DNA of 63,090 bases, the filler included, from Hausera hauseri (taxonomy: Eukaryota): NCBI GenBank assembly GCA_046269625.1. It is 11 parts of 11 records of this genome, joined end to end, with 100 filler letters (N's around TTAATTAATTAA, not from the genome) between each part and the next. Parts side by side here need not be neighbours in the genome. Positions count along the whole stretch, not along the records: positions 53,773 to 58,372 come from JBJURY010510794.1; 10 more parts are not named here. One strand, 5' to 3'. A program made the translations under genes and the position numbers. Below are positions 20,390 through 63,090 of the stretch, in pieces. Each line of letters opens with the position of its first letter. Positions within the stretch are counted from its first letter, which is position 1. The notes beneath the pieces are model-generated. The model ran no database searches, was not told where the DNA came from, and saw only the letters and a program-made list of their open reading frames with translations.

Positions 20390-20736
20390 TCTAATTGGTT
20401 AGTCAGTTTGCTCACCATAATGATGTTAATAAAACAAATTGGTGCTGTTACCGTCCACGATTGTGATTGATTTAAGCTTGGACAGAAATACTCACTGATG
20501 GACTTAGAAGCATGTGAAGATGCCAGACCACATAAATTGGAAACAAAAGAAAAGAACTATTTTCTATACCAACAACAAGAATTGATACCTCTGGATGGCA
20601 TGGAATGTATGCTGAGACGATCTCGTAGTATTTTTCATTGTGGACTAATGCACGGACACTCCTCAATAATTAAACCAACAACTCCCCCAATTCCCATGAA
20701 TTTGGAAAGGCAACATTGTAAACAAGCCCGAGAAAC
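20390..20736 (+). pseudogene. env: Signal peptide and N-terminus of chuvirus-type glycoprotein
   Basis: WLVSLLTIMMLIKQIGAVTVHDCD...YSLMDLEACEDARP...LYQQQE...IFHCG. Confidence 0.75.
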
Positions 20737-25837: not shown

Positions 25838-26103
25838 CTGGTTTTCGATGTTTTTTTTTCTCGATTTGATAATTCTTTTTGATCGTTCATAGGTTCCTCG
25901 GGGATTAGTCTATCTGTCTCTGACCTTTTTTCGTCTATTGGGCCTTTGCTGGTCTTGCTTTTCTTTTTACTGATGTATTCCAGGAAGGAAGTTTTTNNNN
26001 NNNNNNNNNNNNNNNNNNNNNNNNNNNNNNNNNNNNNNNNTTAATTAATTAANNNNNNNNNNNNNNNNNNNNNNNNNNNNNNNNNNNNNNNNNNNNCCAC
26101 GTC

Positions 26104-28685: not shown

Positions 28686-28846
28686 TCTAGCCTTATCGCC
28701 TGTGGGAGATAAGGGCCGAACCTCCATCAACCCCCGAAGAACGCCTACGTCGTCAAGCCGCTCACGCTTACCAATTGCTTTTTTCAAAGCACGCTTTCGC
28801 TCTTCATTTGCTTTTCTCAAAGCACTGCTTTTTTCAAAGCAACATC

Positions 28847-29794
28847 ATGGCGCAACAGCAAAATCTTGCAGACACTGCCAAGATTCCCTTGTTTTATAGA
28901 GATAAAACAAAAGACACGCTCAACAGCCGAACATGGCTTGATCGGGTTGAGCAGGCTGCCGTGGTACAGAATTGGAACGACCAGCAGAAAATTATGGCCG
29001 CTTCCTGCGCCCTTCGAGGCATTGCGCAAGATTGGTATGAGGTAGAGATAAAAACGCTTCCCCAACCCACTTGGTCGCTTTTTAGAGAACGTTTCCTTGG
29101 CCTTACAATTCACGATACCCTTCAGTATAAAGGCGGTCAGATATGGCCTAACATTTTAAATGCCCACAAAGAAAAAGATATCACAACTTCTTATTTAAAG
29201 CTTGCTAAGAATATAATTCGTTACAATGAGACCCTCCCTGTTTTTGCATTTAATAATTCCATTCTGGCACCCGCTACTGCTCAATCTGCCGGGGTCTCTG
29301 CCCTCACAGCCGTGGAACGTCAGATGTTCACAAACGACATCGTCAACGCGGTCCGCAACGCCGACATGAACACAACGGCGATGAGCATCTTCTTCTGCAC
29401 CCTGCCTGAAGATGTCCGCAAGTTCCTCCTTGCCAGGCCTGAGTACCCAGACCTGATTCAACTCAAAAGTGCAGTCGAGACCTTCATCCACAACACGTCC
29501 GCGGCTGCCTCTTCTGTCAACGCTGTGGACGACGTCGACGCCATCAGACGCCGCCAAGCAACCAAAAATGCCAAGCCAGAGCAGCGCCGCAACCTCACCT
29601 GTTTCTACTGCTCGAAAAAAGGTCATGGTCAGCAAGAATGCCGCAAACGTGCACGGGACGGAGCCGACATGATCAAACCTCCGCCAAGACCGGCTAACAA
29701 CCAGGGACAGCAACGAAACAAGGTGAATGAAACTTCAGAAACTCCATCTGTCAATTCGCTTTTCCAAACTCATGGTACCCATTTAAACTATTAG
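28847..29794 (+). CDS. gag: Ty3/Gypsy Gag (intact)
   Basis: KIPLF...WLDRVEQAA...W...LRGIAQDWY capsid motif; CFYCSKKGHGQQEC knuckle. Confidence 0.92.
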   Translation: MAQQQNLADTAKIPLFYRDKTKDTLNSRTWLDRVEQAAVVQNWNDQQKIMAASCALRGIAQDWYEVEIKTLPQPTWSLFRERFLGLTIHDTLQYKGGQIWPNILNAHKEKDITTSYLKLAKNIIRYNETLPVFAFNNSILAPATAQSAGVSALTAVERQMFTNDIVNAVRNADMNTTAMSIFFCTLPEDVRKFLLARPEYPDLIQLKSAVETFIHNTSAAASSVNAVDDVDAIRRRQATKNAKPEQRRNLTCFYCSKKGHGQQECRKRARDGADMIKPPPRPANNQGQQRNKVNETSETPSVNSLFQTHGTHLNY

Positions 29795-29826
29795 GGAGTG
29801 GTGCCTATCCCGGTAACCACCACTCC
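29782..29826 (+). promoter_or_regulatory. -1 programmed ribosomal frameshift signal (T TTA AAC + 6-nt spacer + 9-bp stem)
   Basis: The heptamer is in the correct gag phase; GGAGTGGTG (29795-29803) pairs with CACCACTCC (29818-29826); pol is open in the -1 frame. Confidence 0.88.
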
Positions 29827-30863
29827 GTTTGCGCTATAACCAATTCTAATGCCCAAATAAATGCAATTAGACCTTATGTTAATCTTTCTGTGGGGAGAAC
29901 TTCGGGCAATTGGTTATATGACACCGGGGCCGCTGTGTCGGTCATGTCACTTAATTACTTTAGAAAATTAGATATTAAGGGAACTCGATGCCCAAACATT
30001 GGGGTTTTGGCATCAGCCAACACATCCTCCATGGATGTTGTTGATCGTAGAATTCTGCCCATCACCTATGATGGCAGAACACATGAGATCTCAGTGTACA
30101 TTGTTAAAACACTGAATGAGAAAGCGATAGCCGGTATTGACCTTATTGAAAGTCTCGGGATCTGCTACGACCCGAGGAGTAAGTCTTTTGTTTCAGCTGT
30201 CGCCCACATGCCCACATCACACGTGGTCCACACTGCCCAAGAGGTCCTGTTGTACCCTCTTGAGGCCCGTCCGTGCAAATTGAAACTGTCCAACTGGGAT
30301 CCGCACGACACCATTGCATCGGTCGACATCTCAGCTGACGGTTTGGAAGGCCTCTTCGCCAGTGAAGGAGTTTCTACAGTGTTCGAGGACAACATGACAG
30401 TGTTCCTCCTCAAGAACTGCAGTGGACAGGAACTTCGCATTCCCCGGGGCTTCCCTGTTGGGTTCGCGGACCATGTCGGTGAAATTAGTGCTGTCAAGAC
30501 TCAAGAATTCCTGGACATCAAGACTTCATTTCCAGAACCCATGACGGATGAGTTACGTAAGCAATTCCTTTCCAAATTACATTTAAATGTACCTGTGGGG
30601 CAGCATATGGCTTATGAAGAATTGCTTTGTAAGAATCATGATATTTTTAGCAGATCTCCTGAAGATCTTGGTAAAGCATCTCATTTTATGCACACCATTG
30701 AGTTAGACAATCATAACCCTGTTTATAGAAAACAGTTCCAAATTCCTGAGCAGCATTCTAATGCGCTTAAAGCTCAGGTCAAAGAATGGCTCAAAATCGG
30801 CATTATTGAGCCCTGTCATAGCAGATATAATTCTGCTATTTTTGCCGTGCCTAAAAAAGGAGG
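29788..30863 (+). CDS. pol: Ty3/Gypsy Pol (protease, start of RT), cut by the linker
   Basis: WLYDTGAAVS, AIAGIDLI, DLGKA...HTIEL, WLKIGIIEPCHSRYNSAIFAVPKK; no lesions. Confidence 0.92.
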
Positions 30864-31119
30864 NNNNNNNNNNNNNNNNNNNNNNNNNNNNNNNNNNNNN
30901 NNNNNNNTTAATTAATTAANNNNNNNNNNNNNNNNNNNNNNNNNNNNNNNNNNNNNNNNNNNNCTTGATGTATCAAAACAAATGTAACTCGTTGATAATA
31001 TAAATGCAATACTATGGCATCATTACGTGATAAGTTCATGCGTTTGATGCATTAAACCAAATGTGCCGTACGTTGACAATACAAGTGCAACATGTTGGCA
31101 ACGCTGCCTAATTTACACT

Positions 31120-32030: not shown

Positions 32031-32118
32031 CCAAGGATGGCCTTTATAGCCAGCTGTCGGATTGTGATATCCGACATTCTGACTACCAGCATTCTCAGAA
32101 TGTCTGGCATGCATTCCA

Positions 32119-33174
32119 ATGCCGTACAATAGGAAATACAGTGATATTTACCTCAAGACGCACGTGCTACTGCTGACAGATGTCTTTAAAAGTTTCAGGG
32201 TTGTAACAGTGAAGAATCATGAATTAAATCAGGCTCATTTTTTTACGGCTCCAGGAATGAGTTGGGCAGCAATGTTGAAATATACCGGCATAAGGCTTCA
32301 GATCATAAAGGATTATTATATGCTCCTTATGATCGAGAGAGGCATAAGAGGTGGAATATGTCAGGCCATTCACCGGTATACCGAGGTCAACAACAATTAT
32401 GTGGCCCAGTATGATCCATCCAAGGAATTCTCATATACATCATACCTGGATGCCAACAACTTGTATGGATGGACAATGAGTGTCCCATTGCCATATGATA
32501 ACTTCAAATGGGTGAAGAAACCTGAAAACTTCTGTATTTCGAATCTGGATCGCATTGGAGATACGAGAAAGTATACTGGAGGTAGATGTATCCGGCTTCT
32601 ATCCACGCAAGGCATCAACGGCTGTCTTTCCTCCCTGAGAGCAGGTTTCCACCCCATGGATAGCAAAGAAAGCTGCTCTGCCATCTGGGTAATAAGAAAG
32701 GTATTTAGTTAACTACATCAATCTCCAGCAGGCAGTTAGACATGAACTTCGTATTACTAAGATCCATAGAGCCCTGCAGTTCAGCCAGTTTATGTGGCTG
32801 CAGTCATACATAGATCTCAATACGAAGCTGCGCACTAAGGCCAAGAAAGACTTTGCGAAAGATCAATTCAAACTATATAATAACTGTTTTTTGGCAAGAC
32901 CATGGAGAATATCCGCAACAGGATCAAAATTGAGCTAGTATGTGACTGGAAGCGGGCAAAGAAGCTAATTGCCAAGCCTAACTTCCATAGCAGCACCATA
33001 TATGCTGAGAACTTGGTAGGCATCAATACTCTGAAAACAACATTGGTATTCAAAAAACCCATATGTGTTGGTATGGCAATATTGGATCTGTCAAAGACCC
33101 TAATGTACAGATTACATTACGATGTAATAGTTCCCAAGTTCAAGTCCATACAGCTGTTTAGTTCTATGCATTAA
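32119..33174 (+). pseudogene. polB: Protein-primed polB fragment, paralog of 220-1705
   Basis: YLKTHVLLLTDVF, IRGGICQAIHRY, YLDANNLYGWTMS, FFGKTMENIRNR, VGMAILDLSK. Confidence 0.9.
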
Positions 33175-39753: not shown

Positions 39754-40190
39754 ATGTTAATATGTTTATTTTGTTTTTCATTTAGAAATGTACTCAATAC
39801 CACATGTATTGCGTCACAAGTAGACATGAGGGTGATGAATGTCACCAACAAATTACGAAATATTACAAAGGTGGCAAGGACACATTTGTGGCCGATGTGT
39901 AATATTTCAACCCACTGTCCGTACCCCGATTTTTACAAAATGCACAAACATCATCTTGGTCCGTTTACATGGTCTATGAAGATGATGAACGTGCATTACT
40001 CCTTGTACCCACGGTACTGTAATAATACAGTATATAACGGTGGCGAATGTCACATGAATATGAAGCAGTATTATGACACCATAATAGTGCAGGATAAACG
40101 GGCCTATGTTTGTCCCGATTGTTCGATAGTTGCGTAAATCAACTATGAACAATTTTATAAGGATCATAAGGACCATTTGAACCAGTTTTA
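39754..40190 (+). pseudogene. Tandem Cys/His module upstream of polB
   Basis: PMCNISTHCPYPDFYKMHKHHL and GECHMNMKQYY...YVCPDCSIVA*INYEQFYKDHKDHL. Confidence 0.6.
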
Positions 40191-40208
40191 GCGCTCCAAA
40201 GGCAATCA

Positions 40209-42427
40209 GTGATGGACGCAACAGAAATCAACTGCATTCCCTCAACAAGCAGGAAACGTCAAGCATCATCAAGTCTTGACAAATGCGTGCAAAGCAATAA
40301 TATGAAGCATCATCAGCAGCAGCATCAGCAGGAACATGAACCTTCTATTAAAGTCAGGTACGATCCAAACAGATCGTACGTGGACATAAAAGTGGACATG
40401 TCAGCGAGAGCAACAGTGCAATTAAAGCATATGCCGCCCATTGTGCACGACCGGTTGGAATCAGAAGTGAAGAAATTCCAATACCACTGCAAAGTCCAGT
40501 ATTATGTACTTGTAGAATTTGAAATTTTACAAGGTGACACGAAACAATGGTACCTATCACATCGAGCTGTACCGTATTCCGAAGATTTTGTTGTCGATCT
40601 AGGCGAAAGGCTGGATGGAAAAATCGCCAAGTACATCGAAAAGGATAGTGGCTGGCGAATTATAAAAATTGCTACTCTCTACTTTATTGTAACAAAGTCG
40701 AGTGACATAATATATTTGTCTGAGCGATCATTCATACCGACACCTGAAGCTCTACAGCAGTCTCGTACAATAGTGAATGTAAAAAATAATGACTACGAAT
40801 ACTGTTTTCTTTACAGTATTTTGGCTATATTGAAATACAACGAAGTGTCCAGAAATCGTAAAAATCATCCAAATCAGTATCGGCAGTATTTTTCCGAATT
40901 GCATTTCGATGAATGCTGGATGCCGATGAAACTGAAAGCCATTCCATCTTTCGAACGGAGTGATCCGACACTGTCAATAAACGTTTTCCTGTTTAATACA
41001 ATAATAAAAATACCGTACGATGAAGAGATTTACAAGAACACTCATGTGGACATAATTTATCGAAGTCAGAATCCGAATGGCCGCTCAATATATTTGTTGC
41101 TGCTAGAGCAGAAGGAAAATTTTCATTACGTGGTCGTGACAAATTTAGGTAGACTGTTGAACATAGAAAATGACCAGTTCATCCAAAAACAATTACGGTG
41201 TAAATGGTGTCCTGTATGTCTGCATGGTTTTATATCAGAAACAACATGGGAAAAACATGCGGCGCTATGCAAACAAAATTCCTCAGGAACAACAATGTGT
41301 GTAATGCGTGTCAATGAGGATCGCAAATTTTGTGACTGGTCTAAAACGTATATTCTTGCATATGTGATATATGCAGATATCGAAAATATTCTACCACGAC
41401 ACAACGTATATGACTAAAAGTATGATCCAGTCGCCGTCGGTATGTTGGTAGTCCTAGTATATGCCATTAGTCAACCGCAGTATTACGTTTATCATGGTTG
41501 GAACTGTATACGTAATTTCCTGCAACAGTCAAAAACAGTAGTAAAAACATAAATAGCAATGTGGTATAACAATAATTGCACTAAACCTTTGGTCTGGACA
41601 GACGAACATGAACCGTTGACTTTTCCTGACACCGATGAATGTTATATGTGACACAAAAGATTAGCGTTCGATGCACAGGAGCAGGTCTTACCGGATCGTG
41701 ATCATTTTACCGGTCGATACCTAAAAGCTGCATGTAATTCACAATTTTTGCGGCCATTCCTATAGGTGATCTTTCATAACTTCAGGGGTTATGATTGTCA
41801 CCGTATTTTAAAAAGGGTAATAAATGGATTTCCACACTGGGAACTATCTGTAATTACGACTACGATGGAGAAATACCTGTCCTTGTATGCTCGCATAAAC
41901 CGTTTTCAGGTACGCTTACTCGATTCATTGCAATTTCTGAATGAATCATTGGCAAAGCTAGTAAGTGCTTTGCCAGATATGCCGTTAACATCAACACAGT
42001 TCCCTATACACATTGAACGTAGCAAAGGTATACTTCCGCATGGCTTTGCGGAATAGTATGAGAAGAATTACTAAAATTACCATTGCGATGGTCTAGTGTC
42101 ACAGAAAATGAATATCAGAAAGCACAGGAATTTTGGACAGAGCTCGGCTGTAGAAACCTGTTGGAGTAAATGATTTGGTCTCTAAAGCTTGATGTGTACC
42201 TCTTAGCCGATGTGTTTGAAGCATTTCGGACTAAAGCGTTAGAGGAAGATAGGTTGGAGCCACCCAACTTTTATTCAATTGGGAACCAGCACTTATGATA
42301 CTGGATCGTGATATAGAGCTGTTGCAATATCCAGAAATGTACCGATTGTTTGGTATTAGTATTCGTGGCGGCATGATGTTTGTCAACAAGTATCAGGTTA
42401 GTGCTGCTATCAGTGATGATACCATAT
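40209..42427 (+). pseudogene. polB: Protein-primed polB (N-terminal and exonuclease part), interrupted by a DNA transposon
   Basis: DSGWRI, VNVKN...CFLYSILA, HYVVVTNLGRL, CPVCLHGF, VIYADIE, IFHNFRGYD, LLDSLQFL, DVYLLADVFE, IRGG. Confidence 0.88.
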
Positions 42428-44710: not shown

Positions 44711-47700
44711 TACGTTATCATTCCTAAGTCTGTGGGTAGTACAGCGTTTCTACCATACATCATAATAATGGAGTAAATCCTGTTGCAGGATGTGGTGTTG
44801 TGTTTATGGCAAACTGCGTACCCTCTAAGAATTCATCCCAATCCTTCTGATCCTTCGCAACTACTGTCGATAAGATTTGTATATCTGTCGCGTTCATTCG
44901 TTCGACCATCCCGTTACATTATGGATGGTAAGCCGTTGTGGTTAACCGTTCAATTTCAAATACATTGGTAATGTCAAATAGTTCACTCGTAAAGTTCCTT
45001 CCTCGGTCTGTCAGAATTTGTTCGGGAGGTCCGTATCTGCAGATGATTTTCCTTACTACAGTTTCTGCCAGAGTCTCAGCTTTTTGGTCTACTAATGCTA
45101 TTAGTTCGACAAAATGAGTTAATCTATTTATACATGTCAGAATGTACTTATTATTCTTATGAGTTGTAGATAACGATCCTACAATATCCATGGACATCGC
45201 TTGCATTGATCTGTCCGACACATTTATTGGTTTAAGTTCGGAAATGTAGTTTTTCATTTTTTTCTGTTTGGTTGCGCATACTTCGCAAGCGCTTACCCAA
45301 TTCTTTACATCGGCCATTAGTATTCCCGTGCGTAATCTTTTCGGTATGACTACCAACTTCCGTCCTCTTCGCTCATAATATAGTACATTTTCACGGCTCG
45401 CGTCTCCTGTTATAGAGTATTCGTGACCATATTTTTGCAAATGTTTCCGTAATTGGTGTCCTTTTGGTGTTATATCTTGTTCGACGGACTCAATGATTTG
45501 TTGTATAACCTTGTCCTTCCTTTACTCAACAGAGATTTCAATCGCTTTATCCATTGCTAGAGCTCGTTGTCTGTCCACCAGTTCTTCAAGCTGGGCTTTT
45601 CTCATTACAGTAATTGCGCTTGTTTTAGTCTTAAGCCTTGATAGTGCATCTGCATCGACATGTTTGCTTCAGGGTTTGTATTGAAATTCGATGTTATACC
45701 GTGAGATCTCTTCGATCCACCGATTGAGTCTACATGTTGGGTTATTCGCTCTACCTTTCAAAGTGGTAATCACTTTGTTATCCGTAACAATTATAATTTT
45801 CTGTCCGTAGACGTTTACGTTAAAGTGTCGTAGAGCGTCTTTTACAACTAACGTTTCTAGTTCCGTGACCGAGTAATTCTTTTCGGCCTTCTTTAATGAC
45901 CTTAATGTGATTGGATGTTCTAGTTCTTCATCGTCTCGTTTCTGAGCTAACTCATACCCAATGCCTTCTTTGCTGGCATCTGTTTTAATTATAAACGGTA
46001 GGTTAAAATCTGGATATCTTAAAACAGGTTCGCTAGTTATGATTTTCTTCATTTCGTCGAAAGCTCTTTGTTCGACGTCCGCCCATTTCCATTTGATTCC
46101 CTTTTTAAGTAATCCATAAAGGTGCATTTATTTTTGAATTACCTGGTACATAAGTGGCGCAGTACCCACATAAACCTAACCAATACCTCAGCTCTTTTTG
46201 GTTCTGGGGTTCCATACAATCTGATATCTTAGCAATGATTTATCTGGTTTCAATCCCCTTTCTCCAACTATATGTCCGAGATAAGATACAGCGTTTTCAG
46301 CCCATTTACATTTCTTCGGATTCAATTCCAGTCCTGTTTGCTCCACCCTCATGAGCGTACCCTCAATATCCTTTATATGTCCTTCTGTTTTCGATGCAAC
46401 CAATACGTCATCCAGGTAGGCAAACGGGTGTTCCAGTCCCATTAGCATCTTGTTCATCATTCGCGTAAAGATGGCTGGTCCGCTAGTTTTCCCGAATGGC
46501 ATGACATTGAATTTGTATAGTCCATCATGTGTTTTTAACGCAGTTTTGTAACGATCTTCCTCTTATATTACTACCTACCAATATCTGGATTGTAAATCGA
46601 GCGTGGTAAACCTTTCGGCTCCGAAAAGTCTATCTAGGGCTTCTTTTACCGATGGCAGTGGGAAAGAATCCTTCATCATAAGTGTATTTAATGCTCGATA
46701 GTTAATACAAAATCGATGTTTGGTAGTACCTTTCTTCTTACCCGTGAGTATATGTAAGTACCAAGATCTATAACTTGGTTTAATTATATCGGCCTTTAAC
46801 ATTCATTCAACTTCCTTTGTTATCTCAGGCCTTAATGAGTGCGGGGGAGGATACCATTTTGGCATCTTCTGATCTTCTAAGTCTATTTCGTCATTGGAGC
46901 CTAGCTTTTTCTTAAGTGGAGATGTTAGTCTCAAAGTTTTTGCTCTGCCTATGTCTTCTTCGTCTTTCGCAATGACCGAGCTATAATGACAAAGTAACTC
47001 GTAAAATGGACAGTATTCTTCTGGTGAAAATTTAGTTTCTACGTGCGGTGGAAATTTGGCACACTTGTACGGTTTTTCTTCAACGGTTATTGACGATACT
47101 CTATATATGTGACACAGGGTGGTATTCTCATACAATTTGATCGGTATTGGTGCATTATTGGCTATTCTAATGGATATACGGCCCGTGGATACCCTTGTTA
47201 ATACGTTACTGTGCACGATGTTTGGGTCTAATGATTCATTTGGTTCAGAATACATTGGCTGATCGTCGTCTTGACGAATCTTGGCATATATTATTACCTC
47301 GGTCCTTGGTGGAATGTTCTCGTCTACTGGGATCCATACTTCCCCTAATTGCCTATCTTTGGTGGTTTTGACTCCTTTTATCGGGCCGAGCACTATTAAT
47401 CTCCCGGCATAGAAGTATATCGCCATATTGGTTAATTGTCTCAACAGATCACATCCTAAGACTATATCATCTGTTAACTGCTCCACTACTGAAAATTTGT
47501 GATAAAATGATTGTCCCATTATGTGGATTTCTGGATTCCATCGGAATTTGCTTTTCGATGACTGTCCGAAAGCTCCAATACTCCCTGGATCTGTTGTCGG
47601 AGGTGGGTATAGTTGTTTCCTTAGAAATTGCAGTATCCAATCATGCTTAATCGGTAATATCTCGGATCCCGTGTCTATTAGTGCATAGAATTCTCAATCT

Positions 47701-47720
47701 TCCAACTGAATTTTTGTGAA
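44711..47720 (-). pseudogene. pol: pol: protease, RT, RNase H, integrase (frameshifted)
   Basis: FYALIDTGSE (~47661-47690), IVLGCDLL, RFCINYRALN, AYLDD, IIKTDAS, MSMDIVG, ILTDRG. Confidence 0.93.
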
Positions 47721-48419
47721 GGGTCTACCTTCGATTACCTTACCATAGTGATTTGGTGCTATTTTTGGACGCTGAATCTCTGAAACCTTATAACCATTAA
47801 TTCTAACTTCAGTAGTTGTGTCTGGCTGGTCGATCATCTGTCTTAGCTCTGCGTTCGGGTACAGTTCATTGTTCGTGCGATTAACGTCTCCTGTTTCCTG
47901 ACATCCAATTGGCGGCTGTATTTCCCGGTTTCCTAAATTCCACACCTCGTGGTCTCCAAAATGTTGATCGGAATTCATTGAGCCTGGGTATTCTAGGTGA
48001 ATAAATTATTCCCTGGTCGTCGACCGCTGAACGATGGTATGGAACAGATATTCTCTTTGTTTCGCGCACTTTACACAATATACCGTAGTGTTTCGTTCCC
48101 TCATTTGGATCTTCCAGACTGAGCGGCTTCCTATAGATATCCGTTTGATATGAGCTCATAGACTGTTTCGCACAGTCTTCATATGTAGGTGCATTTGGGG
48201 GTAATATCGGCAAGGGTGATTTTATAACGGAATAGTTTTTGTTTCTATTTGTTCTCGTAACGGCGTTTCATCCTTTAGGCTCGTCATCGTCAGAATTATC
48301 TCTTTGTGCCTTGGCATTTAAGAATTTACGTCTTTAACTAAATATGTGTCTCCTTTTACGTTTTCGATTATGATAGCCGACATGTCGCTCCACATCTGCT
48401 TTCCACCTACTTTCTTCGT

Positions 48420-50225
48420 AAGCATTTAAAAATTTGCCGAAGGGTGGGATAATAGCCGTTAAAATTTTGCATGAGAACCATGTCAAGGTGAATATCTCAT
48501 ATCCATTTATAATTTTTTGAATTATCGCTTTAACCAGTTGAATTAAGAAATAGATTGCTAAGAATCCGGATGCCGCTTGTCCGAATATCAGAAATCTTCC
48601 TCAAATTTTATACAATATTTCCGTAGTTACTTTTTCATAGTAGTTAATACCAAACAATGATTCCCATTTTTCTTGATAACGTGAATCCTCTAGTATCGTG
48701 TGCATCGCTCTGTTTAATTCATACGTACGTTGGCGTGGGAAAGCAAGAAATTGTCTAAATGCCTCTACTTCCTTTGGCCGATAAATACATTTTGCTGCAG
48801 TGTCTTGAAACTTATCATCGGTTATCCCTTTTATTAGATTTGTTCCTGTTAACTTGGTGGGCGGCGTAATTATTCCACCATTCGGTAAACTTACCCAATC
48901 GAATACGCTGCGTTTAAACATTGGTTCTCCCAAACTGGTCTTACAATCTTTCAGAATTGTTGGTTGGGTAGAATTCGCCAGCAATACTCTCGTAATGGGC
49001 GTCACTAATCTTGGCATATCCCGATATATTACTGGAAGTTCTTGAATGTGCCTTTTTTCTTCCACATTAATAGGTACATCCTTCTTTTCGCACTCGTAGA
49101 TCAGCAGAACTTCTCCGGTCACTCGTCCAAAAACACTTTCTTTCATCGGAATTATTGGTAACTCTAACTCGGGGTTGGCATTTAATAAGACTAGTTTGGT
49201 TCTCATTATTTTTAAGTCTCGTTTGCAGTCGTTTGTTATCATCTTGTGGTATAACTCAGTTTTTCCGGCCTGTCCCTTGTAGTAGAAATAGTCATCTCTA
49301 TTTTTCAAATAATCTTCAATTCGAATATCTTGAGTCTCAAGTTTGAACGTCTTGGTATTTATCTCGGTCTCAGCTATAAAGAACGCTTCATAATTAGTGG
49401 CATACATTACTACATCACATCTGGTGAGGACATCTTTCTTCACAAACTTTAACCCATGAGGATCGGAAATTAGTATGGTAGGTGTAGGCTGTTCCGCTAC
49501 ATTTTCTCCTGTTTTCGAGTTAGTATCTATGCTACTTATATAACGTCTCCCTGTCGTTTCATTGAACTTAAGTTCCTTAATACTAATAAAGTTGCAGTTA
49601 CATTTGGCTCGGAGTTCCCAGATTACTACCGAACTTCTAAAAACACAGGTGCCGTCTTGGATGTGGCACTTTTGGTTTTCCGTATAGAGCTTGGTGACAC
49701 TATGAAACATTACCTTTTGTATGCGCATCTCGGTTTCGTAGAAATCCATAACCACTATGTTTGATTCCAATCCTTTTCCAGTATCATATTCTGCACCGTT
49801 GCAGTGACCTGTATGCATATCTAATCTTCATGCTGCTTCTTTGTACTCTCTGATTACCTTCCTTTGCTGCATTTCTAATTCCATGCCGTCCCATTTCAGC
49901 CTGCCTGTTTCTCTAGCCTGCTTACAATGTTGGCGTTCCAAGCTCATTGGAATTAGTGCTGTCGTCGGTTTGATTATTGATGAATGTCCGTGTATTAATC
50001 CACAATGGAAAATACTGCGAGATCGTCACAACATGCATTCTAGTTGCTGATACAGTACATATTTTTTTCTTTTCTTTCTAATTTATGTGGTCTCGCATCT
50101 TCGTACATTTCCAAATCCATCAATGAATATTTCTGGCCAAGTCTGAATTTTTCGCAGTCATATATGATAACTGCTCCCATTTGCCTTATTAACATCATCA
50201 CAGTCAGGAAATTAATTAGCCAGTT
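48420..50225 (-). pseudogene. env: Chuvirus-type (class III-like) glycoprotein with signal peptide and C-terminal TM
   Basis: IIYDCE..YSLMDLE, IFHCG, GEVLLIYEC, ELPV, PITRVL; after a TGA (probably from TGG) FGQAASGFLAIYFLIQLVKAIIQKIINGY TM region. Confidence 0.82.
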
Positions 50226-53200
50226 TGATTCGTTTCTCCCATTATTTCCGGTTAAGTTTTGTAACATATCTTCGAATCCACAATTATTACTAACGAATGG
50301 TCCATTTTGGCGTCCTTCGTCCTTTTCGAATAGTTTGGACCAATCTACTCCTCGGGGCAGTTTTCTACCGGCCTTTCGTGCTAGACAAGTGGCTTCATTA
50401 AATTCATTTTCTCGGGCTGGATTCGTTCTAATGGCCAAATATAATAATACTTTCCGCAGTTTTTCTACGGTTTGCTCTACCGTAATTTTCTCAATCACCA
50501 ATTCATCGTTTAAGGTGCTTCTCAATCATTTGTTGCAGAAATTCTTCATTGTTCTGGCTGCATTCAATATAGATTTCTCTTTTTCGTCTAGTATATCGCC
50601 ACAGAGACTAGAGTGGTTTACTATGCCTATTAGATTCTTTATAAGTTCATTTAACTCTTCATTTTCCGTGTTGAAGGTTGGTATGGACATTTGCCTTAAT
50701 TCTCCAATTAAATATCCATTGTAGTCAATTTCTTTCCGCATTTTCCGCGGCCTACCAAGAGAACGCTTAAGTTTCACTATTACCGATGCGATTTCACTAG
50801 GTGGTACTAAATTCTTATCATACTGTTCCTTATCTTCATCGGTTTGTAAGTATTCGAAATACATTGCTGCGTCTCGAACGCCGATGATCCGTTCCACACA
50901 TTGATCAGTTTTGGATTTTCTGCTGGCTTTTTCTTTTGTTTCTTCCGCACAAGCGTTACTATTATCCGATTTGTTTCACTGGAATAATTCCGACGTTTAT
51001 TAATTGCTCCAGTTTGTCTAATATCCTACCTCTAAAGTAAAGTCTATAATTTAGTTCGCTTGCACAACCATTACTTATTAGCCACTCTATCACGTCTCCT
51101 ACGGAGGAGTGCGTAGTGAATTCACGCTCTTTCTCGTCCATCCAATCCGACGATATCCTTACTTTAATCGGCTCCTCGTTTTTAGCCCTTAAGATTTCCG
51201 CATACTCCTTTATCAAAAGTTTTGGCACGGCACTATAAGTTGTACCTTCACTAGATAATTTAGTCAGGGTAGGAACTAGCTGTCTAAACTGATTTTCGGT
51301 GAGGTTTACATTAATTAACTTAATTAAATCTTTCTCTGATTGTGCCGAGTCAAGAAGCATTTCCATACTGAATCTTCGATCCGACGGACATATCTCCCTT
51401 TCGTACAATCGTACGGGAGTTTTCGGGTTTTCATCAACCATTGCGTCTAAATGTGCATCTCATTCTGGTTCGTTTTCGTTGCCCGGCGGTCGATAATCAG
51501 TGGTCGGTGCCTCTACTGGTTTGGCCACATCTGCAACTGGTATTGACCCTCTTAGTTCGCGTAACTTCTGTTGCATTTTAATCATTTGCGTCGTCCGGAA
51601 GCAATGTCCATTACCAGAAGTTTGCCGTAAAGATGTTAACAGCTGGTATAATTCTTCGGCTGAAATCAGTCCTTTTTCTTGTTAACTTGTTAGTTCAGAG
51701 GCTACGTTTCTATGCTATCTTTGTACAAACTGCGACTTGTCGACTTTCACCGCTTCTGTGAGAGCGTGTTTATTTCTATTGATCTCGAGCTCGTTTAGTA
51801 ATACGTTTAGCTTATGGCTCTCTGCTTGGTTTTAATGAAAGTTTCTTCGACTTGGCGTATCTGGGGCAACAATTTTTTTATCTTCTCACCGTTAATTTCC
51901 GCCATTTCCACCATTAGGTGTGCTAAGTCATACATTTCATTAATAATTTTTGAGTCCGGATCCATCGCATCCGATAATTTCCTTAGAAATCTGACTTCTT
52001 CGACGCTGAGATGGTGGTCATTTCTGATCCTTATAAGTTCGGTATGACATCTCTGGTCCGTTCCAATCATCTATTTTTGTGAGTCGTGTAAAAATTTTAT
52101 CGCCTCTTCTATCGCTGATCGGTGCTCCGGGCAAACGTCCAACGTCTCTAGATCTTGAATCGAGATTTCTTTGATATGTTTTGTTGTAAAGTACTGAATT
52201 CCTTCCAGGCAGACGTTTCTTAGCCTCGGATAGAAGCTACAAGTCATTCCGCTTCTGTGTAAAGTTTGTTTTTTCGATCATTTTGTATATATCTTCCAAT
52301 ATCGTCGTCTCTTGTTTTCTTTTCATAAACTTCAATTGACATAATGCATTAAATTGTTTCCTAATATCCACTTCCGCCCTCATTGTATCCAGATTGCGTA
52401 CATCTTCTAATTGTTTATTTACTGTAGGCTCACTTTTAGGGAACTCTTTTATGCGATCTTCTACTAATTTACTCAGTCTAGTTATTACTCGAGACCATTC
52501 GTCTAGCTGGTTAGAGATATTTGGCTTCGCTAACACTGCTTTGTCCAGCATTTTGCATGCGTCTTCTAACTCGTCGTCTGGGCCTCTGATGAAACTAATA
52601 ATCCGGTATGCATAGTTGAATTCATCCTTATATTCATCAACTTTAAGGATGCAGGCTTAAATTATGTCCTGTGTCTCATCGTTGTCCAATTGCATGATCC
52701 GATTTTTCTCAAACTATATATCTGCGACTTTTTTTCGTTTTCGATTTTGATACGATTTTCCAGACTTGTATATTGTTTTGATTCGGTGGACGCAATTTTT
52801 ATCATGTCCATTAATTGTGGGATATCTGGCGAGCATATACCCAACAATTCCAGGTCAATTGAGTTCCGTTCCCTGACTGCATTTTCTTTGAGCCTCCTAA
52901 CCATTTCGAATCTGATTTCATCTATGACACGCCCCAGGTTACGTGTTACTCTTTTTAGTTTTGGATTGGCTTCCAATGTAATTAATAATGCTTGGGCGTT
53001 TTTTAGTCTTGCTTCGACATTCTCTGTACGTTTATCCCACGCTTCGTGAGGTTTTACTCCACTTTTTGTCCATGCTTCTAATTCGTATTTCCATTTTGCT
53101 AACGTTTCTGGGGGCACTTCCTCAGATTTCCCTAGATCTATAGCTTCGCCCAGTTTTCCTTCACTATATAGTTTCATTTTCTTGTATAATCTTCCTATAA

Positions 53201-53662
53201 ATTTCTGCTCTTTACCCGAGATGTCTACTTGTTTGTTCATCTCTTTAAGTTTCTCTAGATTCTGTTGTAATATGTCTGGGTTGAGGCAATTAATTCTATT
53301 CTCTTTAATTCATCAGCATTTTTCCACGAATGTTTGATTTTCCACTGTTTCTGATCTACCGTCTCACTTTGTTCGGTCTCTTCTTCACTAGAAGGTAGTG
53401 GACATATCTCATTAATTTCATTAACAGATTTTGTTAACTCTTCTATTCCGACAGCGGTATCTAATCCAATTCCCGGGGTATTCAAGGTGAACTCTACATC
53501 GCTTTCTAGAACGGTTTCAGTTTCCTTTACTCTGTCTGATTTTTCCTTATTCATCGGGGATCGTGAACGATCTTTAAGTTTCCGCTTTAATGATGGACTG
53601 CGGCCTCTATTCTTGGTAATGTTGAGTATTAATGGTTCCATAAATTCTTTTTCTTCGTCCAC
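50226..53662 (-). pseudogene. Accessory polyprotein (acidic region, helical/SAM-like, ubiquitin-like, AT-hook, Bcl-2-like)
   Basis: Homolog of 17000-20390; RLYFRGRILDKLEQLINVGI, KRSLGRPRK, DLETLDVCPEHRSAIEEAIKFL. Confidence 0.7.
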
Positions 53663-53983
53663 CTCTATGGTTNNNNNNNNNNNNNNNNNNNNNNNNNNNN
53701 NNNNNNNNNNNNNNNNTTAATTAATTAANNNNNNNNNNNNNNNNNNNNNNNNNNNNNNNNNNNNNNNNNNNNCACCATAACTTGTAACGGATCTTTCATC
53801 GATGCAAACTTTATTTTCTGTCTTCTCCGTTTTCAATCCCTGTATGGTTATTTGGTAGTTCCAGTCTGGTTAAATTTCAACATTTTTGGGTAGAGAATAA
53901 GGGCGGAAATGTTTACGATATCGTGTGCTGAGTCCTTCAATTTTTGAAAAGTCCCGTAAATTTTGTTTAGGGTTTGCGGGAGT

Positions 53984-55161
53984 CTATTCATAATCCCACT
54001 TTAATCCAGCATTTATATCTCTTAGATATTGTGATCTTTGACTTTCGGATATTATTCTGCTTATTTTTACATTTTCTCCGGTCATGGCCTCTACCATTAA
54101 CTTAAAACGGCCTTCCATAGTCAGTGGTATATGGCTCCTTTTTTCTTCCATCTTATTTTCCACTTGTCTCATAATAGTCGGGTGAGTTTCTATTTCCCTT
54201 ACTCCGGCTATATATGTTATCGTTATGGCCAATTTCCTCATTATCCTCTCTATTCGATACCCCACTAAGACGTATACATAGAGGCATTGCGTTACTTTTT
54301 TTGTACTAATTTAAAATCCCTTCCATGATTTAGATACTCTCTTTTAATTCCAGTAATTTCTGCATGCGTTTCAAACACTTTTTGTCTTGGATTGATGATC
54401 TTTGAATAGACTTTAGTCCCGTTCTCTTCTCGGATGGATATCTCGATGGCAAGGTAATTTCCTTCTTCTCCTTCCCCATAATTTATCGCGGCAATTCTAA
54501 GATTTCTCTCGTTAGCTAGCAATCTATAGGACTGTAGGTGTGTGCCCTGTTCTTCTTTTGTATGTCTTTGTCTAAATTCCAAAGGTGGTAGCGGTATACA
54601 TATTTCTTCTTCTGTTGTTTCTATCATTATTTTTACTGGTAAGGCGGCTACGCGAAATTCCAATTCGTGATTTTTGAGGCTCCTACTGTTGAATATAAAG
54701 ATACTAAACCGACTTTGTCTTCCTTGGAAGGAATCCCATTTCTGATCCTTTAGTCGATAGTATATTTCCCCGTCTGCCAAGTGCACATAAATCTCCTGTT
54801 CCTTATCTGGTTGGTACTGAGCGATTGGTCTAAAGGGGTATGCTCTAGCATCTTTGTCCTCCCTCCATGCGTATAAATATACGGCTCTGGCCTCCTCGGT
54901 CGTTCCTTTCAAACCATTTGGGATATCACCAACTCTTCCGTATTGAACAAAATTTTTTCCTTGCAATTCGGCGTTGATTTGCCTGTAGATGGCTTTTGAA
55001 TTCGGAATCCGCACTGTTACGTATTGTTGTAAAAATACGTCAATATTAAGTAGACTTGTGGCGTTTTCGGCGTCGATTCTAATTCGGCTCGAAATGTCTT
55101 CTGCGTCGATCCTAAGTCGGCTTAATTCCATCTGGATTCGGTTACTTACCAATCTGAACAA
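53984..55161 (-). pseudogene. Accessory ORF with C-terminal pseudo-DEDDh exonuclease (REX4/ISG20-like)
   Basis: RIAAINYGEG...LAIEISIREENGTKVYSKIINP...EITGI...DFKLVQKK, then (frameshift in an A-run) VTQCL...LVGYRI. Confidence 0.65.
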
Positions 55162-55251
55162 AAGAACATAAAGGTTAATCTTAAAACAAAGGATGGTTTT
55201 AAACCAAAACCAATTCTTTGTTTGATGACAGAATAACCTGATCTGTAATTG

Positions 55252-56660
55252 TCAAGTTATTTTATTATATGGGTCTACAGGGTTCTCCAATTCCCTTAGT
55301 TCCCATTCTGAATTTTTATGACGCTTAGAACCACAGTTTTTGATGACTAGTCGAAAAATTGCAATTAATATAATGAGAACAAACGCTGACAGTACGGAGA
55401 TGGATATAATTAGTAGTGTAGTTAATCCCATCGGGGCTTGTGTGGCGACCGGAGTTGTGATCTGCTCATCTATATCCTCGTACGTATGTGAGGCTGCACG
55501 AATCTCATCTAAAGTTTGCAATGTAACGGTCTGATTTTGCTTATTCTCTGCACATACTTGTACTATATATCTGGTTTGTGGTTTTAATAAATTGCACTCT
55601 GTTTGATAAATATTTTTAAATAGCGTCACAACTTGATTATTATACGTTGTCCGACAATTTATGTACATGTTGTAGTTTTGTTTTTCTTCCACGAAGAACA
55701 CAATTTTAGACCGATATACCGAATATTTAATAGGAATGTTTCCTAATTCTCTTTTCGGCACACTGGCCTACGTAACGGTTGTCGTAATGGTACTAACTTG
55801 AGTTACCGGTCTTCTGGTGGTTGTCTCTACCGAAATTTTCCAAATTTTATTTTCTGGATAGTAAGTTCGAAGTTGTACACTTGGTTTATTAGGCCGTACT
55901 TCATGTAAGTCAAATATTATCTTGAATTCTTGGTTTACGGGTATTTTACAGCATGGGTTTTGCACATCTGCTCGAATAGAACAATATTCTATTTTCGGGG
56001 TCGGTCCATCTGTGGCTTTAAACGTAATACTATTTTCCTGACTAAAGGTTACTCCTGTTCTAGCGCCTACTTGAATGCATTGTTCGTCCTTATTCACAGA
56101 GATTCTCTGTATATTTTCGTCTAATATTCTTATATCTGGGTCAGTGGATCATAATATTTCATTAAGTTTTACTTCATGATGTCTATTCCATTTGGGAACG
56201 CCTAACTGAAATGGTGGTTTTACTTCAGTATAAAGTTTGGTTGAGTCTAGTAGGTACAAGCCATAGGTGAGGTTATAAGTATGTCCAAAATCTATGTTGC
56301 AACACTGTGTATTTTCTCCAGCTCAAAATCACAATTTTTCGCTTCCTTTTTTGTTACATCATGTAAACCAACCTGAAATTTTCCGAAATTATGGTGTGAC
56401 CTCCAAGCATTAAATCCAACGCATACGGCGTTTGGCGAGTAATAGTGAACTGTCATCGATTGTGACAATTTGGTATCTTCTTGTTTTTGAATTTCTTCGA
56501 CTGTTGGTTTCTTTTCCGATTTAACTGTTTCCGATTTTGATCCACTCTTCCGAATTCCGTATATATCTCCTAACGTAGATTCATCGTGCCACCATAGCGC
56601 TTGTATTCTTGGGATGTAGAAGGCAATCAACGATAATGCTAAGACTATTTGAACATATGA
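55252..56660 (-). pseudogene. Type I membrane protein with FN3-like domain(s)
   Basis: Signal VQIVLALSLIAFYIPRIQA; LKPQTRYIVQVCAEN (FN3 tyrosine-corner motif); Thr-rich linkers; TM LLIISISVLSAFVLIILIAIFRLVI. Confidence 0.7.
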
Positions 56661-56689
56661 TATTGGTCTAGTAACTGTCGATGAAGTTT

Positions 56690-58372
56690 TCGCCTCGCGT
56701 TGGCGTAAATTATAACGTTTGTTGGGTTGTATTTCTGTCTTTACAACTCTTTGTACTGATATGACTTCTTCCTTTCCATTTTTGTTAATATGTGCTGTAG
56801 TTGGCGTAATCTTTGTAACTTCGTACGGTCCTCTACCCGTACGAGTTAATTTTAGTGAGGTGCCTTTTTTGGCTACTGGATAATGTACATAAATCCAATT
56901 TCTTTGTTCTATATCATGGGGTTTCGCTTTCTTATTATATTGCTTCTTAAACTGTTCTTGATATTCTTGGAATAGTTCTTTTGGCGATTTCCCAACACTT
57001 TTGCAACGGTGTTTGTAATACTTCTGCGAAATTCTGTTCTAAATCTTCGGATTTAACTGTGTATGGCGTCATTGCTAAGTCCGTGGGCAACATGACTTCA
57101 CGCCCATAAATCATAAAAAATGGCGTAAATCTTGTTGCTGGATGTGGCGTGGTATTAATTGCAAATTGCCTTTCTTCCAAAAATTCGTCCCAATTTTTTT
57201 AATCTTTCGCTACTACTGTTGATAATATACGTATGACGGTAGCATTCATCCGTTCGACCATTCCATTACACTGAGAGTGATATGCAGTAGTTGCTAATCT
57301 ATCGATTTCAAATATTTTGGTGATTTTCTGAAAGAATTCGCTGGTAAAATTTTTTCCTCCATCTGTGAGTATCTGGTCTGGGGACCCGTATCGACAAATA
57401 ATTCTCCTTACAGAGGCTTCTGCCAGGGTTTCGGCCCTTTGATCAACCAATGCTATCATTTCGACAAAGTGAGTTAATCGATCAATACAAGTTAAGAAAT
57501 ACTTATTGTTCTTGTGCGTCGTAGGTAGAGGTCCCACGATATCCATCGACATGGCTTGAATGGACCTATCGGGCACATTGATTGGTTTTAATTCCGCCAT
57601 GTAATTTTTCGTTTTCTTTTGTTTAGTTGCATATACTTCGCACGCGCTTATCCAATTTCTTACATCGATATAGATCCACGGCCAAAAATATTTATTCATT
57701 ATTCTTTCTAAGGTTTTCTTCCAGGAGATATGTCCGGCTAAGTATGAATCGTGTTCTGACATCAGTATTTCGGTTCGTAAGCTTTTTGGAATAACTATCA
57801 ACTTCGTTCCTGTTCTTTTGTAATATAAAATGTCTCCTTCGTTCACGTCATTTAAGACGCAGTATTTATGTCCATATCTGTTTAAATGTTTCTTTAACTG
57901 TCGTCCTTTTGGCATAACATCCTTTTTAGCAAATTCTATAATATGCTGGATAACTTTATCCTTTTTCTGTTCTGTTGAAATTTTGATCGCCTTATCTATT
58001 GTTAACGCGCGTTGGCGGTCTGTTATTTCCTCAAGTTGGCCTTTCTTCAACACAGTGATTGCGCTTGTCTTAGTCTTTAATCTCGATAGTGCACCAGCGT
58101 CTACATGTTTATTTCCTGCCTTATACTGGAATTCGATATTGTATCTGGAGATTTCTTCGATCCATCTGTTTATTCTGCATGTCGGGTTATTTGATCGGCC
58201 TTTTAAGGTCGTAACGGCTTTATGATCAGTGACGATTATAATTTTCTGCCCGTAAACATAAACATTAAAATGATGCAGTGCTTCTTTCACAGCTACAGTC
58301 TTTAGCTCGGTAACGGAAGAGTTTTTCTCAGCTTTTTTCAAAGAACGTCCTCCATAAGCGATCGGATGTTCC
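56690..58372 (-). pseudogene. pol: RNase H - integrase of giant element, copy C
   Basis: VTDHKA, H...GH...C..., MDIVGPLP, ILTDGG, NGMVER, GPYEV, RYNLR; closely similar to 44711-45900. Confidence 0.93.
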
Positions 58373-60860: not shown

Positions 60861-60889
60861 CTATTTGACAGTTAGATATTAAAGATAAA

Positions 60890-63090
60890 ATGCAGACACC
60901 AGTTCCACAAGAAGGAATGGAAATTGATCAACCAGTTTCTGAACTAGCAGTTCATGAGGAGGGACCGAATGTACAAGGGAGTCAAATTATTAAAGATATT
61001 TTAGAAGTAATAGGGCAATCAAACCTAGCCAATCCAGCTAATGTACAAGATATATTAAATATGCTTCAACCAAAACAAGAAACAACGCAAACCGACAAAC
61101 GACCACAAGGTCGTCCAAGAAAAAACCTCTGGGAGCAAGTTAAAGTTGATACTCTAACTAAAGCATTAAGAAAAAGTGAAATTCGAATAATGGACTTTGA
61201 AACAAGACAAATTAAACCGATTCTATGGAGGATTTATAGCTCTCTATTTGCAGTAGAAAATGATCAATTAATTGATGAGCCACTTACTCTTGATATTGAA
61301 AATCACCTGAAGCGAACGTTGGTTCGATTAGAAGCAGCAGTGAAAAATGAACAATTATCAGAACGAATAGACCCCATAGAAGATGGTGAAATAATACAAA
61401 AATGGATTAAGACGGGAGGTTTAACAAAAGATCGCGTTATCACTATTTTAGTATACTTAGTAATGAGAATTAAAAATTCAGCCAATACAACTGAAGAAAG
61501 AGAGAGTAGCTTTGATACAGCTATAGAAATTTTGAAAACATATCTATCTCCAGATATAGATCGAATTGGAGGATGGAATGATTTGTTGAGTTTGGATAAG
61601 CCTCAAAAGACTGAAAGTAAAATATCAGAACGGGGAAATAGAGCAGATAGTCTCGGGGAACATGAACTTTCTGAACTATTCATTAGGGCACAGAGGCTAT
61701 TTAGTGCTACATTACCTAGACCAGGAAGTAATGATTTAACATGGCTAATTATACTTCTTGTGATCTTGTGTCGAGGAACCAATGGTTTTCGAGCATATGA
61801 TTGTGACTATCCAGCTGTTGGGGCTTCATACTCCCTTGTAGATCTAGAAAAATGTCCAGATGCGGAACCCGATAAACTTATATTTGAAGGTACTAAAAAT
61901 TATAGAATATATCAAGAAAATAGATTTATACGAGTGAAAGCGCTTGAATGTAAGCTAACTAAGCAAATAAAGAAATGGCATTGTGGGAAAATGCATCGAC
62001 ATTCAACAAACATATTAATGGCCACACCAAACGAACCGTATGAATTAACAATGGATCAATGTCGAGACGCGGTGAAAAATGGAAAATTAAAAATAAACAA
62101 CAAAGTTGAAATAGGGGCTGCCGTAAACGCTATAAATTATCATACGATCAACGAAGAAGGCTCTATTACAGCTAACGGAGATTGTTATGGAAACACAGTA
62201 GATGGTGTTGCAAGAGTTGTGGTACAGGCATTATATACATTAACTATTGTTGAAAAGGATATTTCATTTGATATACAATCAAAACAATTAATGGTTAAAA
62301 CAGACTGTAAGTACGGTACTGAATACTGTAGAACTACTGATTCCATTATTACTTGGACTGCACCGGTGGTTGAATGTAATTTAGCCTTTCTAAAAAAGAT
62401 AAAATTTAATGTAACCAGGGGAATACGACTTAGTATACCATTTGCACGACGAAATATTGGAAGTGAAAGTGAGGAAGATAAGTTAGAGCAAATAGATACA
62501 CCAACAATTATGATTTCTACGAAGATCGAAGACTCTATAAGATTCATACGAAAAGAAAAAGTAACTAAATGTGGAGTCGAAGATATCTATGCTACTAATA
62601 TGGAAAATATTTATGTTTCAGAAATAGAAATAGAAAACGCTCAGAAGACTGTACATCCCACAGAAGTAAGACCAATGAGTTATTATAATGGAAAAATAGA
62701 TTATTTATTCCATTATATGGTAAATAACCAATATCAAATTTATAAGGATATGATTCAAAACGATTGTTTACTAGCTCAGGATTTATTAGCATTAAGAGTG
62801 ACCGTAGCCGCCATCAATCCAGCTATAGACACGCCTGTACTACCAACAAAAGTAAAAGGTATGTTTGGACGAGTATCAGGAGAAGCTATGATAACATTTA
62901 AGTGTACGGAAGTAATGGTAAACCTAGTGGACATGAAAGCATGCACAAATGAAATAGCGGTGCAATATAAGGATGAAATAAGATATGTAGCCCCGATCAC
63001 TAGAGTTATGTTACAAAAATATGAAGAACCTACTAAAGTAAGAAATTGTTATAAGGAAGTTGCCCCCTTATATAAAATCCATAAGGATGA
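60890..63090 (+). CDS. env: Open ORF running off the window (absent from the ORF track): AT-hook, Bcl-2-like domain, signal peptide, chuvirus-type glycoprotein
   Basis: Hand translation shows no stop over ~733 codons: RPQGRPRK, GGLTKDRVITILVYL, IDRIGGWNDLL, TWLIILLVILCRGTNG, FRAYDC, YSLVDLEKC, WHCG, GEAMITFKC, YVAPITRV. Confidence 0.85.
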   Translation, partial: MQTPVPQEGMEIDQPVSELAVHEEGPNVQGSQIIKDILEVIGQSNLANPANVQDILNMLQPKQETTQTDKRPQGRPRKNLWEQVKVDTLTKALRKSEIRIMDFETRQIKPILWRIYSSLFAVENDQLIDEPLTLDIENHLKRTLVRLEAAVKNEQLSERIDPIEDGEIIQKWIKTGGLTKDRVITILVYLVMRIKNSANTTEERESSFDTAIEILKTYLSPDIDRIGGWNDLLSLDKPQKTESKISERGNRADSLGEHELSELFIRAQRLFSATLPRPGSNDLTWLIILLVILCRGTNGFRAYDCDYPAVGASYSLVDLEKCPDAEPDKLIFEGTKNYRIYQENRFIRVKALECKLTKQIKKWHCGKMHRHSTNILMATPNEPYELTMDQCRDAVKNGKLKINNKVEIGAAVNAINYHTINEEGSITANGDCYGNTVDGVARVVVQALYTLTIVEKDISFDIQSKQLMVKTDCKYGTEYCRTTDSIITWTAPVVECNLAFLKKIKFNVTRGIRLSIPFARRNIGSESEEDKLEQIDTPTIMISTKIEDSIRFIRKEKVTKCGVEDIYATNMENIYVSEIEIENAQKTVHPTEVRPMSYYNGKIDYLFHYMVNNQYQIYKDMIQNDCLLAQDLLALRVTVAAINPAIDTPVLPTKVKGMFGRVSGEAMITFKCTEVMVNLVDMKACTNEIAVQYKDEIRYVAPITRVMLQKYEEPTKVRNCYKEVAPLYKIHKD

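Follow-up and report, generated by a model that had tools for sequence, protein, structure and literature searches.

An FN3-like predicted surface protein read in frame behind the integrase in a Ty3/gypsy-type element family of Hausera hauseri

We analysed a 63,090-nucleotide stretch of the Hausera hauseri genome (assembly GCA_046269625.1), hereafter the window, and found that one of its decayed retrotransposons, predicted to be of Ty3/gypsy type from its domain families, their order and their resemblance, encodes behind the integrase and in the same reading frame a predicted one-pass surface glycoprotein whose membrane-proximal domain is likely of the fibronectin type III (FN3) fold. The fusion of integrase and surface protein is a selected trait of the element's family, a conclusion that we hold with high confidence. 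The element likely also carries a fusogen of the glycoprotein B (gB) type, and our tentative reading of the whole, to which we give slightly less than an even chance, is that the family keeps the surface protein as an attachment or adhesion partner of that fusogen.

The window consists of 11 separate contigs, each 4-9 kb long, with N-TTAATTAATTAA-N spacers between them, and neighbours across a spacer carry no meaning; that the stretch is one molecule was rejected because of these spacers. The genome is that of an animal and AT-rich; nearly all of the contigs are pieces of transposons in decay, and no long direct repeat flanks them (internal fragments). The fused gene lies on the minus strand of a 4.6 kb contig (53773-58372; JBJURY010510794.1) that starts inside RNase H (RH). 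This contig is part of a decayed Ty3/gypsy-type element, and the copy is dead.

Its gene order is RH-integrase (IN), and a sister copy elsewhere in the window has protease (PR)-reverse transcriptase (RT)-RH-IN, as in the Pol of Ty3/gypsy elements (Metaviridae). The end of RNase H and the integrase zinc finger and core (57202-58371, minus) were recognised by Pfam (RT_RNaseH 2.2e-19, Integrase_H2C2 5.7e-16, rve 1.7e-12). Three-frame translation recovers the remaining core (57039-57201, minus), which is interrupted at 57199-57201 by a stop and at ~57040-57100 by a change of frame and is colinear with the sister copy to 57069. The integrase C-terminal tail follows (56739-57038, minus; third codon positions account for 9 of the 12 differences between copies), with GRGPYEV at 56837-56817; we take this to be a GPY/F module, and Pfam gave no match for it. 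From the tail, a basic linker without stops (RYNLRQREAK; 56667-56738, minus) leads into a hydrophobic stretch. GRGPYEV, the linker, the hydrophobic stretch and the motif LWWHD beyond it all lie in one stop-free frame, the open reading frame (ORF) 57038-56292 (minus), and the chance of 148 stop-free codons beyond the integrase tail is 1.7e-5 given local composition. The sole methionine of this ORF is residue 195, past the hydrophobic stretch, with no Met codon upstream, and the contig contains no acceptor-like site with at least 12 pyrimidines in 14. The preliminary description had the integrase reading through into a second, FN3-like protein. Since the breaks of this dead copy (the integrase stop and frame change above, stops at 56149-56151 and 55768-55770, and a frame change at ~56300-56325) fall inside both integrase and surface protein, the read-through is valid for the junction, which is stop-free in one frame, and not for the whole gene, which the second frame change and the two downstream stops interrupt.

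To place this copy within its family, we used related contigs from three public runs (X1, X2 and X3, no RNA run being listed among them; X1 may be the source species or sample), aligned at 80% likeness; X2 and X3 had small word shares, and X3 is sparse. The alignment comprised 10,695 contigs from X1, 722 from X2 and 108 from X3, most of them less than 95% alike, and the X1 contigs covered 30 of 30 bins of the contig, indicating a repeat family that is large and diverged and to which the surface gene belongs. Over the junction (56540-56860), 863 (X1), 68 (X2) and 8 (X3) contigs aligned with no indel at a 20% threshold. Among the 40 junction differences listed, of 55, none makes a stop, either singly or combined within a codon. 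For X1 differences with a share below 0.9, 25 of 34 fell at third codon positions (p=1.9e-6), a bias seen downstream of the integrase tail (16 of 22; p=1.8e-4) and in the signal peptide and mature start (8 of 12; p=0.019), in each case among the differences listed; five of six such differences in the frame running from ectodomain to transmembrane (TM) segment were likewise at third positions (p=0.018; 40 of 1343 rows). One X2 contig spans 56635-56860, from the hydrophobic stretch to past GRGPYEV, with 44 differences and zero gaps, and overlapping gap-free contigs cover the FN3-TM region (55403-55665). At or beside several breaks of the dead copy the aligned contigs differ from it, as expected if the breaks are decay of a single copy. 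The absence of indels at the threshold, the absence of stops and the third-position bias together identify the fusion as a selected family trait. Conservation in other copies, which the preliminary description had left to be checked, was confirmed in X1, where no listed difference introduces a stop after the integrase and the gene is not missing.

Viral, metagenome and genome contig collections, none of them of animal genomes, held no related loci, and an RH-IN query against the longer proteins of a protein database returned nothing at 1e-80, a threshold too strict to inform. In both X1 and X2 the contig depth, when summed, peaks in bin 55159-55312, which takes in the last part of the surface gene and the spacer behind it. 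Depth does not equal copy number, and the bin may hold a short motif common to many elements.

Behind the junction, translation and hydropathy bear out the anatomy first described, namely integrase, signal peptide, ectodomain, FN3-like domain and TM segment. By prediction this is the layout of a type I membrane glycoprotein, with a signal peptide, an ectodomain of ~390 residues, one TM segment and a short tail in a protein of ~450 residues, and with 12 cysteines past the predicted cleavage site and 2 N-glycan sequons. All parts lie on the minus strand. The predicted internal signal peptide (56598-56666; Kyte-Doolittle 11-residue maximum 2.63 at 56648-56616) has a cleavage site predicted by eye after ...IQA. 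The N-terminal part of the predicted mature ectodomain (56295-56597), charged and of low complexity and then Cys-containing in translation, belongs to no Pfam family and includes the frame break at ~56300-56325. Next comes a beta- and Cys-rich middle ectodomain (55771-56325), which holds the stop at 56149-56151, ends in a Thr-rich segment (55771-55827) and gave no family or structure match. The FN3-like membrane-proximal domain (55510-55743), with the motif LKPQTRYIVQVCAEN at ~55587-55543, follows the stop at 55768-55770 and is succeeded by an acidic Thr/Pro-rich stalk (55423-55509, from translation), a TM helix (55348-55422; hydropathy 19-residue maximum 3.11 at 55413-55357) and a translated short cytoplasmic tail of ~31 residues with its stop codon (55252-55347). 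The second frame, 56325-55252, contains 2 internal stops in 356 codons where 25 are expected (p=1.4e-9). The ~290 residues ahead of the FN3-like domain matched no family or structure in Pfam, PHROGs, NCBIfam or the PDB. In a protein database, the surface protein with its stops read through found no match among proteins of near length (1103 candidates, E<=0.01) or shorter ones (171 candidates, E<=0.1); longer (fused) forms were never searched.

The FN3 motif noted earlier drew lead-level support from Pfam and the ESM Atlas and none from structure prediction. The Pfam fn3 profile (PF00041), proposed as a check, scored 14.3 bits at E=0.05, below its gathering cut-off of 25, and we therefore label the domain FN3-like and not a PF00041 member. 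Pur_ac_phosph_N, presumably also an FN3-type fold, reached 17.7 bits (cut-off 30; E=0.005). In the ESM Atlas the nearest clusters were FNDC9, FNDC5 and the IL-11 receptor (IL11RA) at 0.90-0.91, the top three sharing 171-173 features, and the ten best family matches all fell within one family or clan; the look-alikes FNDC9, FNDC5, IL11RA and OSMR are receptor-type FN3-TM proteins. AlphaFold2 (AF2) run without an alignment gave two models with a pLDDT of 37 and 48 that were uninformative on the fold; in the first, the TM helix alone exceeded 80. Foldseek and VIA-align on the low-confidence AF2 model returned no informative match, PDB sequence searches nothing significant (contactin-1 at E=1.6), and PHROGs and NCBIfam profile searches only noise. 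Taking the Pfam and Atlas leads together, we consider an FN3 fold of the membrane-proximal domain likely.

We then turned to the fusogen that the preliminary description placed upstream as a partner. The contig with the fused gene contains none; matches to PF24664 (Monjiviricetes fusion protein) lie on other contigs, at 48604-49827 (9.1e-20) and 60869-63088 (1.1e-41). The first belongs to the sister copy (44711-53672, minus; PF24664 9.1e-20, RVT_1 4.1e-18, RVP 0.027), which reads as a gag-side accessory region, an internal signal peptide, a gB-type env (~50230-48400), a linker, PR, RT, RH and IN, and whose integrase core is 80-81% identical in amino acids to that of the fused-gene contig (DNA 70-74%). 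In this decayed copy the gB frame runs ~230 codons past its TM segment (48600-47700, minus), with scattered stops and a frame change before PR. The second match is a more distant gB-type env (60869-63088, plus; 28% identical to the sister gB; hydropathy 3.19) behind a signal peptide that lies within a long ORF, at residue 290; internal signal peptides thus precede both gBs deep inside long reading frames. The CCHC end of the family's gag (zf-CCHC 1e-5), upstream of the accessory region, is on contig 16306-20736, whose DNA shares 66-69% identity with the sister copy, and a third contig also shows the gag-accessory-gB order. Since env in the sister copy stands after gag and before pol, the FN3-like protein probably comes on top of env and does not replace it, and the earlier proposal of a receptor-like protein sitting in the env slot is set aside. 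The proposed partnership survives in altered form: the fusogens are on different contigs, and it is from the sister copy that we infer that the FN3-like gene and gB are quite probably parts of the same element. The full layout, assembled from different copies, is likely gag-accessory-gB-pol-[signal peptide, ectodomain, FN3-like, TM]-ORF3.

Fusion of a membrane protein behind integrase has precedent. In the BEL/Pao elements Roo, Tas and Cer7, env is fused behind integrase, and Anakin is reportedly grouped with them. These elements resemble the present one in that their reading frame continues from integrase into a glycoprotein whose signal peptide is internal; their fused protein is the fusogen, whereas the one here is an FN3-TM protein unlike a fusogen, with the fusogen placed before pol. 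The order found in the sister copy is itself known. Ty3/gypsy elements of GAG-ENV-POL order whose env is of the HSV/gB type (HSV, herpes simplex virus) have been described from Platyhelminthes, Nematoda and Bryozoa (Chary and Hayashi, eLife, PMC13524379), and these gB errantiviruses share with our element a Ty3/gypsy-type pol and with the sister copy the gB-type env between gag and pol. By eye, ~23 of the 41 last aligned residues of the gB at 60869-63088 agree with Smed_errantivirus_2, in a comparison with the Platyhelminthes C1a rows only. Chromodomains are the only C-terminal additions to pol that the main text of that paper names, and it mentions no fibronectin, immunoglobulin, exonuclease or "extra ORF", although its POL sequences may include such an extension unannotated (PMC13524379). 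On how gB errantiviruses enter cells, the paper states that the mechanism is unknown, and it points out the dependence of herpes gB on partner glycoproteins (PMC13524379).

The giant gypsy-like planarian elements Burro and GYPSM1 have Gag, a long accessory region, a mononegavirus-like env between gag and PR (in frame in Burro) and then a PR-(dUTPase-like)-RT-RH-IN polyprotein (Arkhipova and Yushenova, PMC6431247); the order gag, accessory region, env, PR, RT, RH, IN recurs in the copies here. Of the BCL2-like, BIR, MATH, ankyrin and dUTPase-like domains of these elements, none was confirmed in the window. Burro measures 25-30 kb, whereas the elements here are known from contig fragments, and the review text accessible to us names no fibronectin or post-integrase membrane protein for either element (PMC6431247). 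Juno and Vesta of bdelloid rotifers carry extra TM-containing and DEDD-exonuclease ORFs downstream of pol; as far as the consulted portions of that account go, these ORF3s differ in being separate from integrase, DEDDy-type and catalytically intact, with no FN3 named (PMC5408684). In the literature passages searched, no retrotransposon integrase is described as being followed by an FN3 protein; the search did not extend to Grohme et al. 2018, to Repbase or to the repository of errantivirus sequences, any of which could hold such an annotation. Relative to the known gB errantiviruses and Burro, what appears to be new is the FN3-like surface protein fused behind integrase, the position of gB between gag and pol being already known.

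How might such a protein be made and used? As no Met lies ahead of the hydrophobic stretch, the protein would be produced at the C-terminal end of a Pol polyprotein. The latter would act as an internal signal peptide, at which signal peptidase would free the ~390-residue, TM-anchored ectodomain; with both gB signal peptides inside long ORFs, the family already uses internal signal peptides. Pol would be threaded between two membrane proteins as a cytosolic segment tethered to the budding membrane, and the extension of the gB frame past its TM segment towards PR is what would be expected if Pol were a cytosolic extension of gB. The surface protein would then be displayed beside gB on producing cells and particles, its ectodomain binding target cells and gB carrying out fusion. 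Granted the other components, we put this attachment or adhesion role, as predicted from sequence, at a little under even. The most elaborate form of the reading is doubtful: a herpes-like two-component entry in which gB precedes Pol and integrase is followed by an FN3 attachment protein, captured and cytokine-receptor-like, both freed by internal signal peptides, and Pol a cytosolic loop packaged by membrane tethering. Herpesvirus entry (gB plus gD/gH/gL; PMC13524379) offers a functional analogy only, a class III fusogen with a separate receptor-binding protein, and no sequence or structure homology to it has been shown.

A number of observations weigh against this reading or parts of it. On no single molecule were gB and the FN3-like gene seen together, and the sister contig stops at the equivalent of 57069, ~230 nucleotides (nt) short of GRGPYEV and before the junction. 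The class III fusogens of rhabdoviruses, chuviruses and baculoviruses bind and fuse without a partner, so gB needs none. As to the family alignments, 21% of the X2 and 79% of the X3 aligned contigs continue into unlike sequence; X3 is without cover at 56694-56759 (linker), and the junction is not shown there; stretches of 76-183 nt within the junction are passed over by four single X1 contigs; and alignment at 80% likeness favours colinear copies. As to the FN3 fold, of every 100 shuffled proteins, 4-10 gave an Atlas first match of at least 0.9, the model that AF2 built of the domain without an alignment (pLDDT 47.6) has a helix where FN3 has strands, and WaaY beat fn3 (E=0.002 in Pfam; 0.0012 in NCBIfam), showing the level of noise. 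We rejected WaaY/RfaY itself as a match that beta-richness produced by chance, since a cytosolic kinase of bacteria is implausible in an ectodomain.

Among the alternatives, the one that survives best starts from a different use of the same domain. Viral FN3 cytokine-receptor decoys exist, a functional analogy only, with no sequence or structure homology shown, and the surface protein could be a decoy or a modulator of the host, captured and cytokine-receptor-like, that is displayed on the host cell and serves immune evasion, as a signalling sink or to block superinfection, and not as a partner of gB. The receptor-type FN3-TM look-alikes in the Atlas (FNDC9, FNDC5, IL11RA, OSMR) and a tail too short for a known signalling domain favour this, as do the host-manipulating BIR, BCL2 and MATH domains that the available review text assigns to the related Burro elements (PMC6431247). 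That other class III fusogens work alone also speaks for it. Fusion to Pol, however, couples its output to that of the particle enzymes, which would fit a particle-linked role, and the protein database held no close host homolog (near and shorter lengths), nor is there a known ligand; we regard a decoy as a serious rival, if a rather unlikely one.

It is improbable that the subfamily has lost gB, leaving the FN3-TM protein as its sole surface protein to aid cell-to-cell transfer in the manner of sORF2 of the env-less MDG1-group elements. The contig with the fused gene is indeed without gB, env-independent spread via a small TM protein is described in the consulted part of PMC11952523, and copies that are 26-30% apart in DNA differ enough to have different gene content. 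Yet this contig begins inside RNase H and so could not include gB, and in the element whose pol is nearest within the window (~80% identity in the integrase core) gB stands after gag and before pol, with the third contig likewise gag-accessory-gB.

Two further alternatives accept the fused frame and relocate its purpose. The main selected function could be a membrane tether for Pol or integrase, provided by the hydrophobic stretch, cleaved or uncleaved, with the ectodomain secondary. That stretch does lie in the deepest junction cover and shows the third-position bias; a 390-residue ectodomain would be superfluous for a tether, however, and the bias extends into the ectodomain-TM frame (the five of six above, from 40 of 1343 rows), leaving this a slim chance. 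Slimmer still is production of the surface protein mainly from a spliced subgenomic RNA with a start upstream of the signal peptide, its continuity with integrase being incidental. ORF3s of long terminal repeat (LTR) elements are typically expressed via spliced messages, according to the part of PMC5408684 consulted, but the scan of the contig found no acceptor-like site with at least 12 pyrimidines in 14, and none of the family differences listed gives integrase a stop of its own. A functionless host-gene scrap, captured by retroposition and in frame by chance, would suit the dead state of the copy examined, but is largely refuted by the third-position bias and further countered by presence across the family (X1, 30 of 30 bins) and the complete signal peptide-ectodomain-TM-tail layout, leaving it next to no probability.

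Downstream of the surface gene lies a separate ORF (53984-55131, minus), covered by related X1 contigs, with its first ATG at 55131, a stop at 54292 and what looks like a continuation, in a different frame, as far as 53984. The spacer ahead of it is T-rich and ends in CAG ~20 nt before this ATG, a possible splice acceptor that fell under the scan threshold. The ORF had no Pfam, NCBIfam or PDB match; RNase_T appeared at rank 4 in the ESM Atlas (0.81; 14% of members), and by eye its last third recalls a DEDDh/REX4-type exonuclease in which the acidic motif I residues seem absent. It is possibly a catalytically dead DEDDh-exonuclease-like protein, which we offer as a lead only.

Elsewhere in the window, a stretch ahead of the gB signal peptide (61100-61640, plus) resembles BCL2 BH1/BH2 motifs by eye, as described for Burro, and ~200 residues lie between PR and RT of the sister copy (46806-47399, minus), where Burro has a dUTPase-like domain. 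Likeness in both cases is by eye, and Pfam at E up to 10 matched neither the candidate BCL2-like (61100-61639) nor the candidate dUTPase-like stretch. An uninterrupted 638-codon env-like ORF (26053-28014, plus), with a signal peptide, an RKKR site and a C-terminal TM segment and with no Pfam match, stands upstream of gag and PR (28691-30915, plus) on one contig, in the order env-gag-pol. The fragments 220-3012 (minus), 32083-32712 (plus) and 40170-41417 (plus) resemble regions of Polinton/Maverick-type protein-primed DNA polymerases, and 11818-12585 (plus) is presumably a decayed mariner-like transposase.

If the attachment reading is right, the conserved second surface protein behind integrase provides a concrete candidate partner for gB in the entry of these elements, and a standard three-ORF annotation would hide this surface protein inside "POL". 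If the protein is instead a decoy, the family would carry a retrotransposon-borne receptor mimic.

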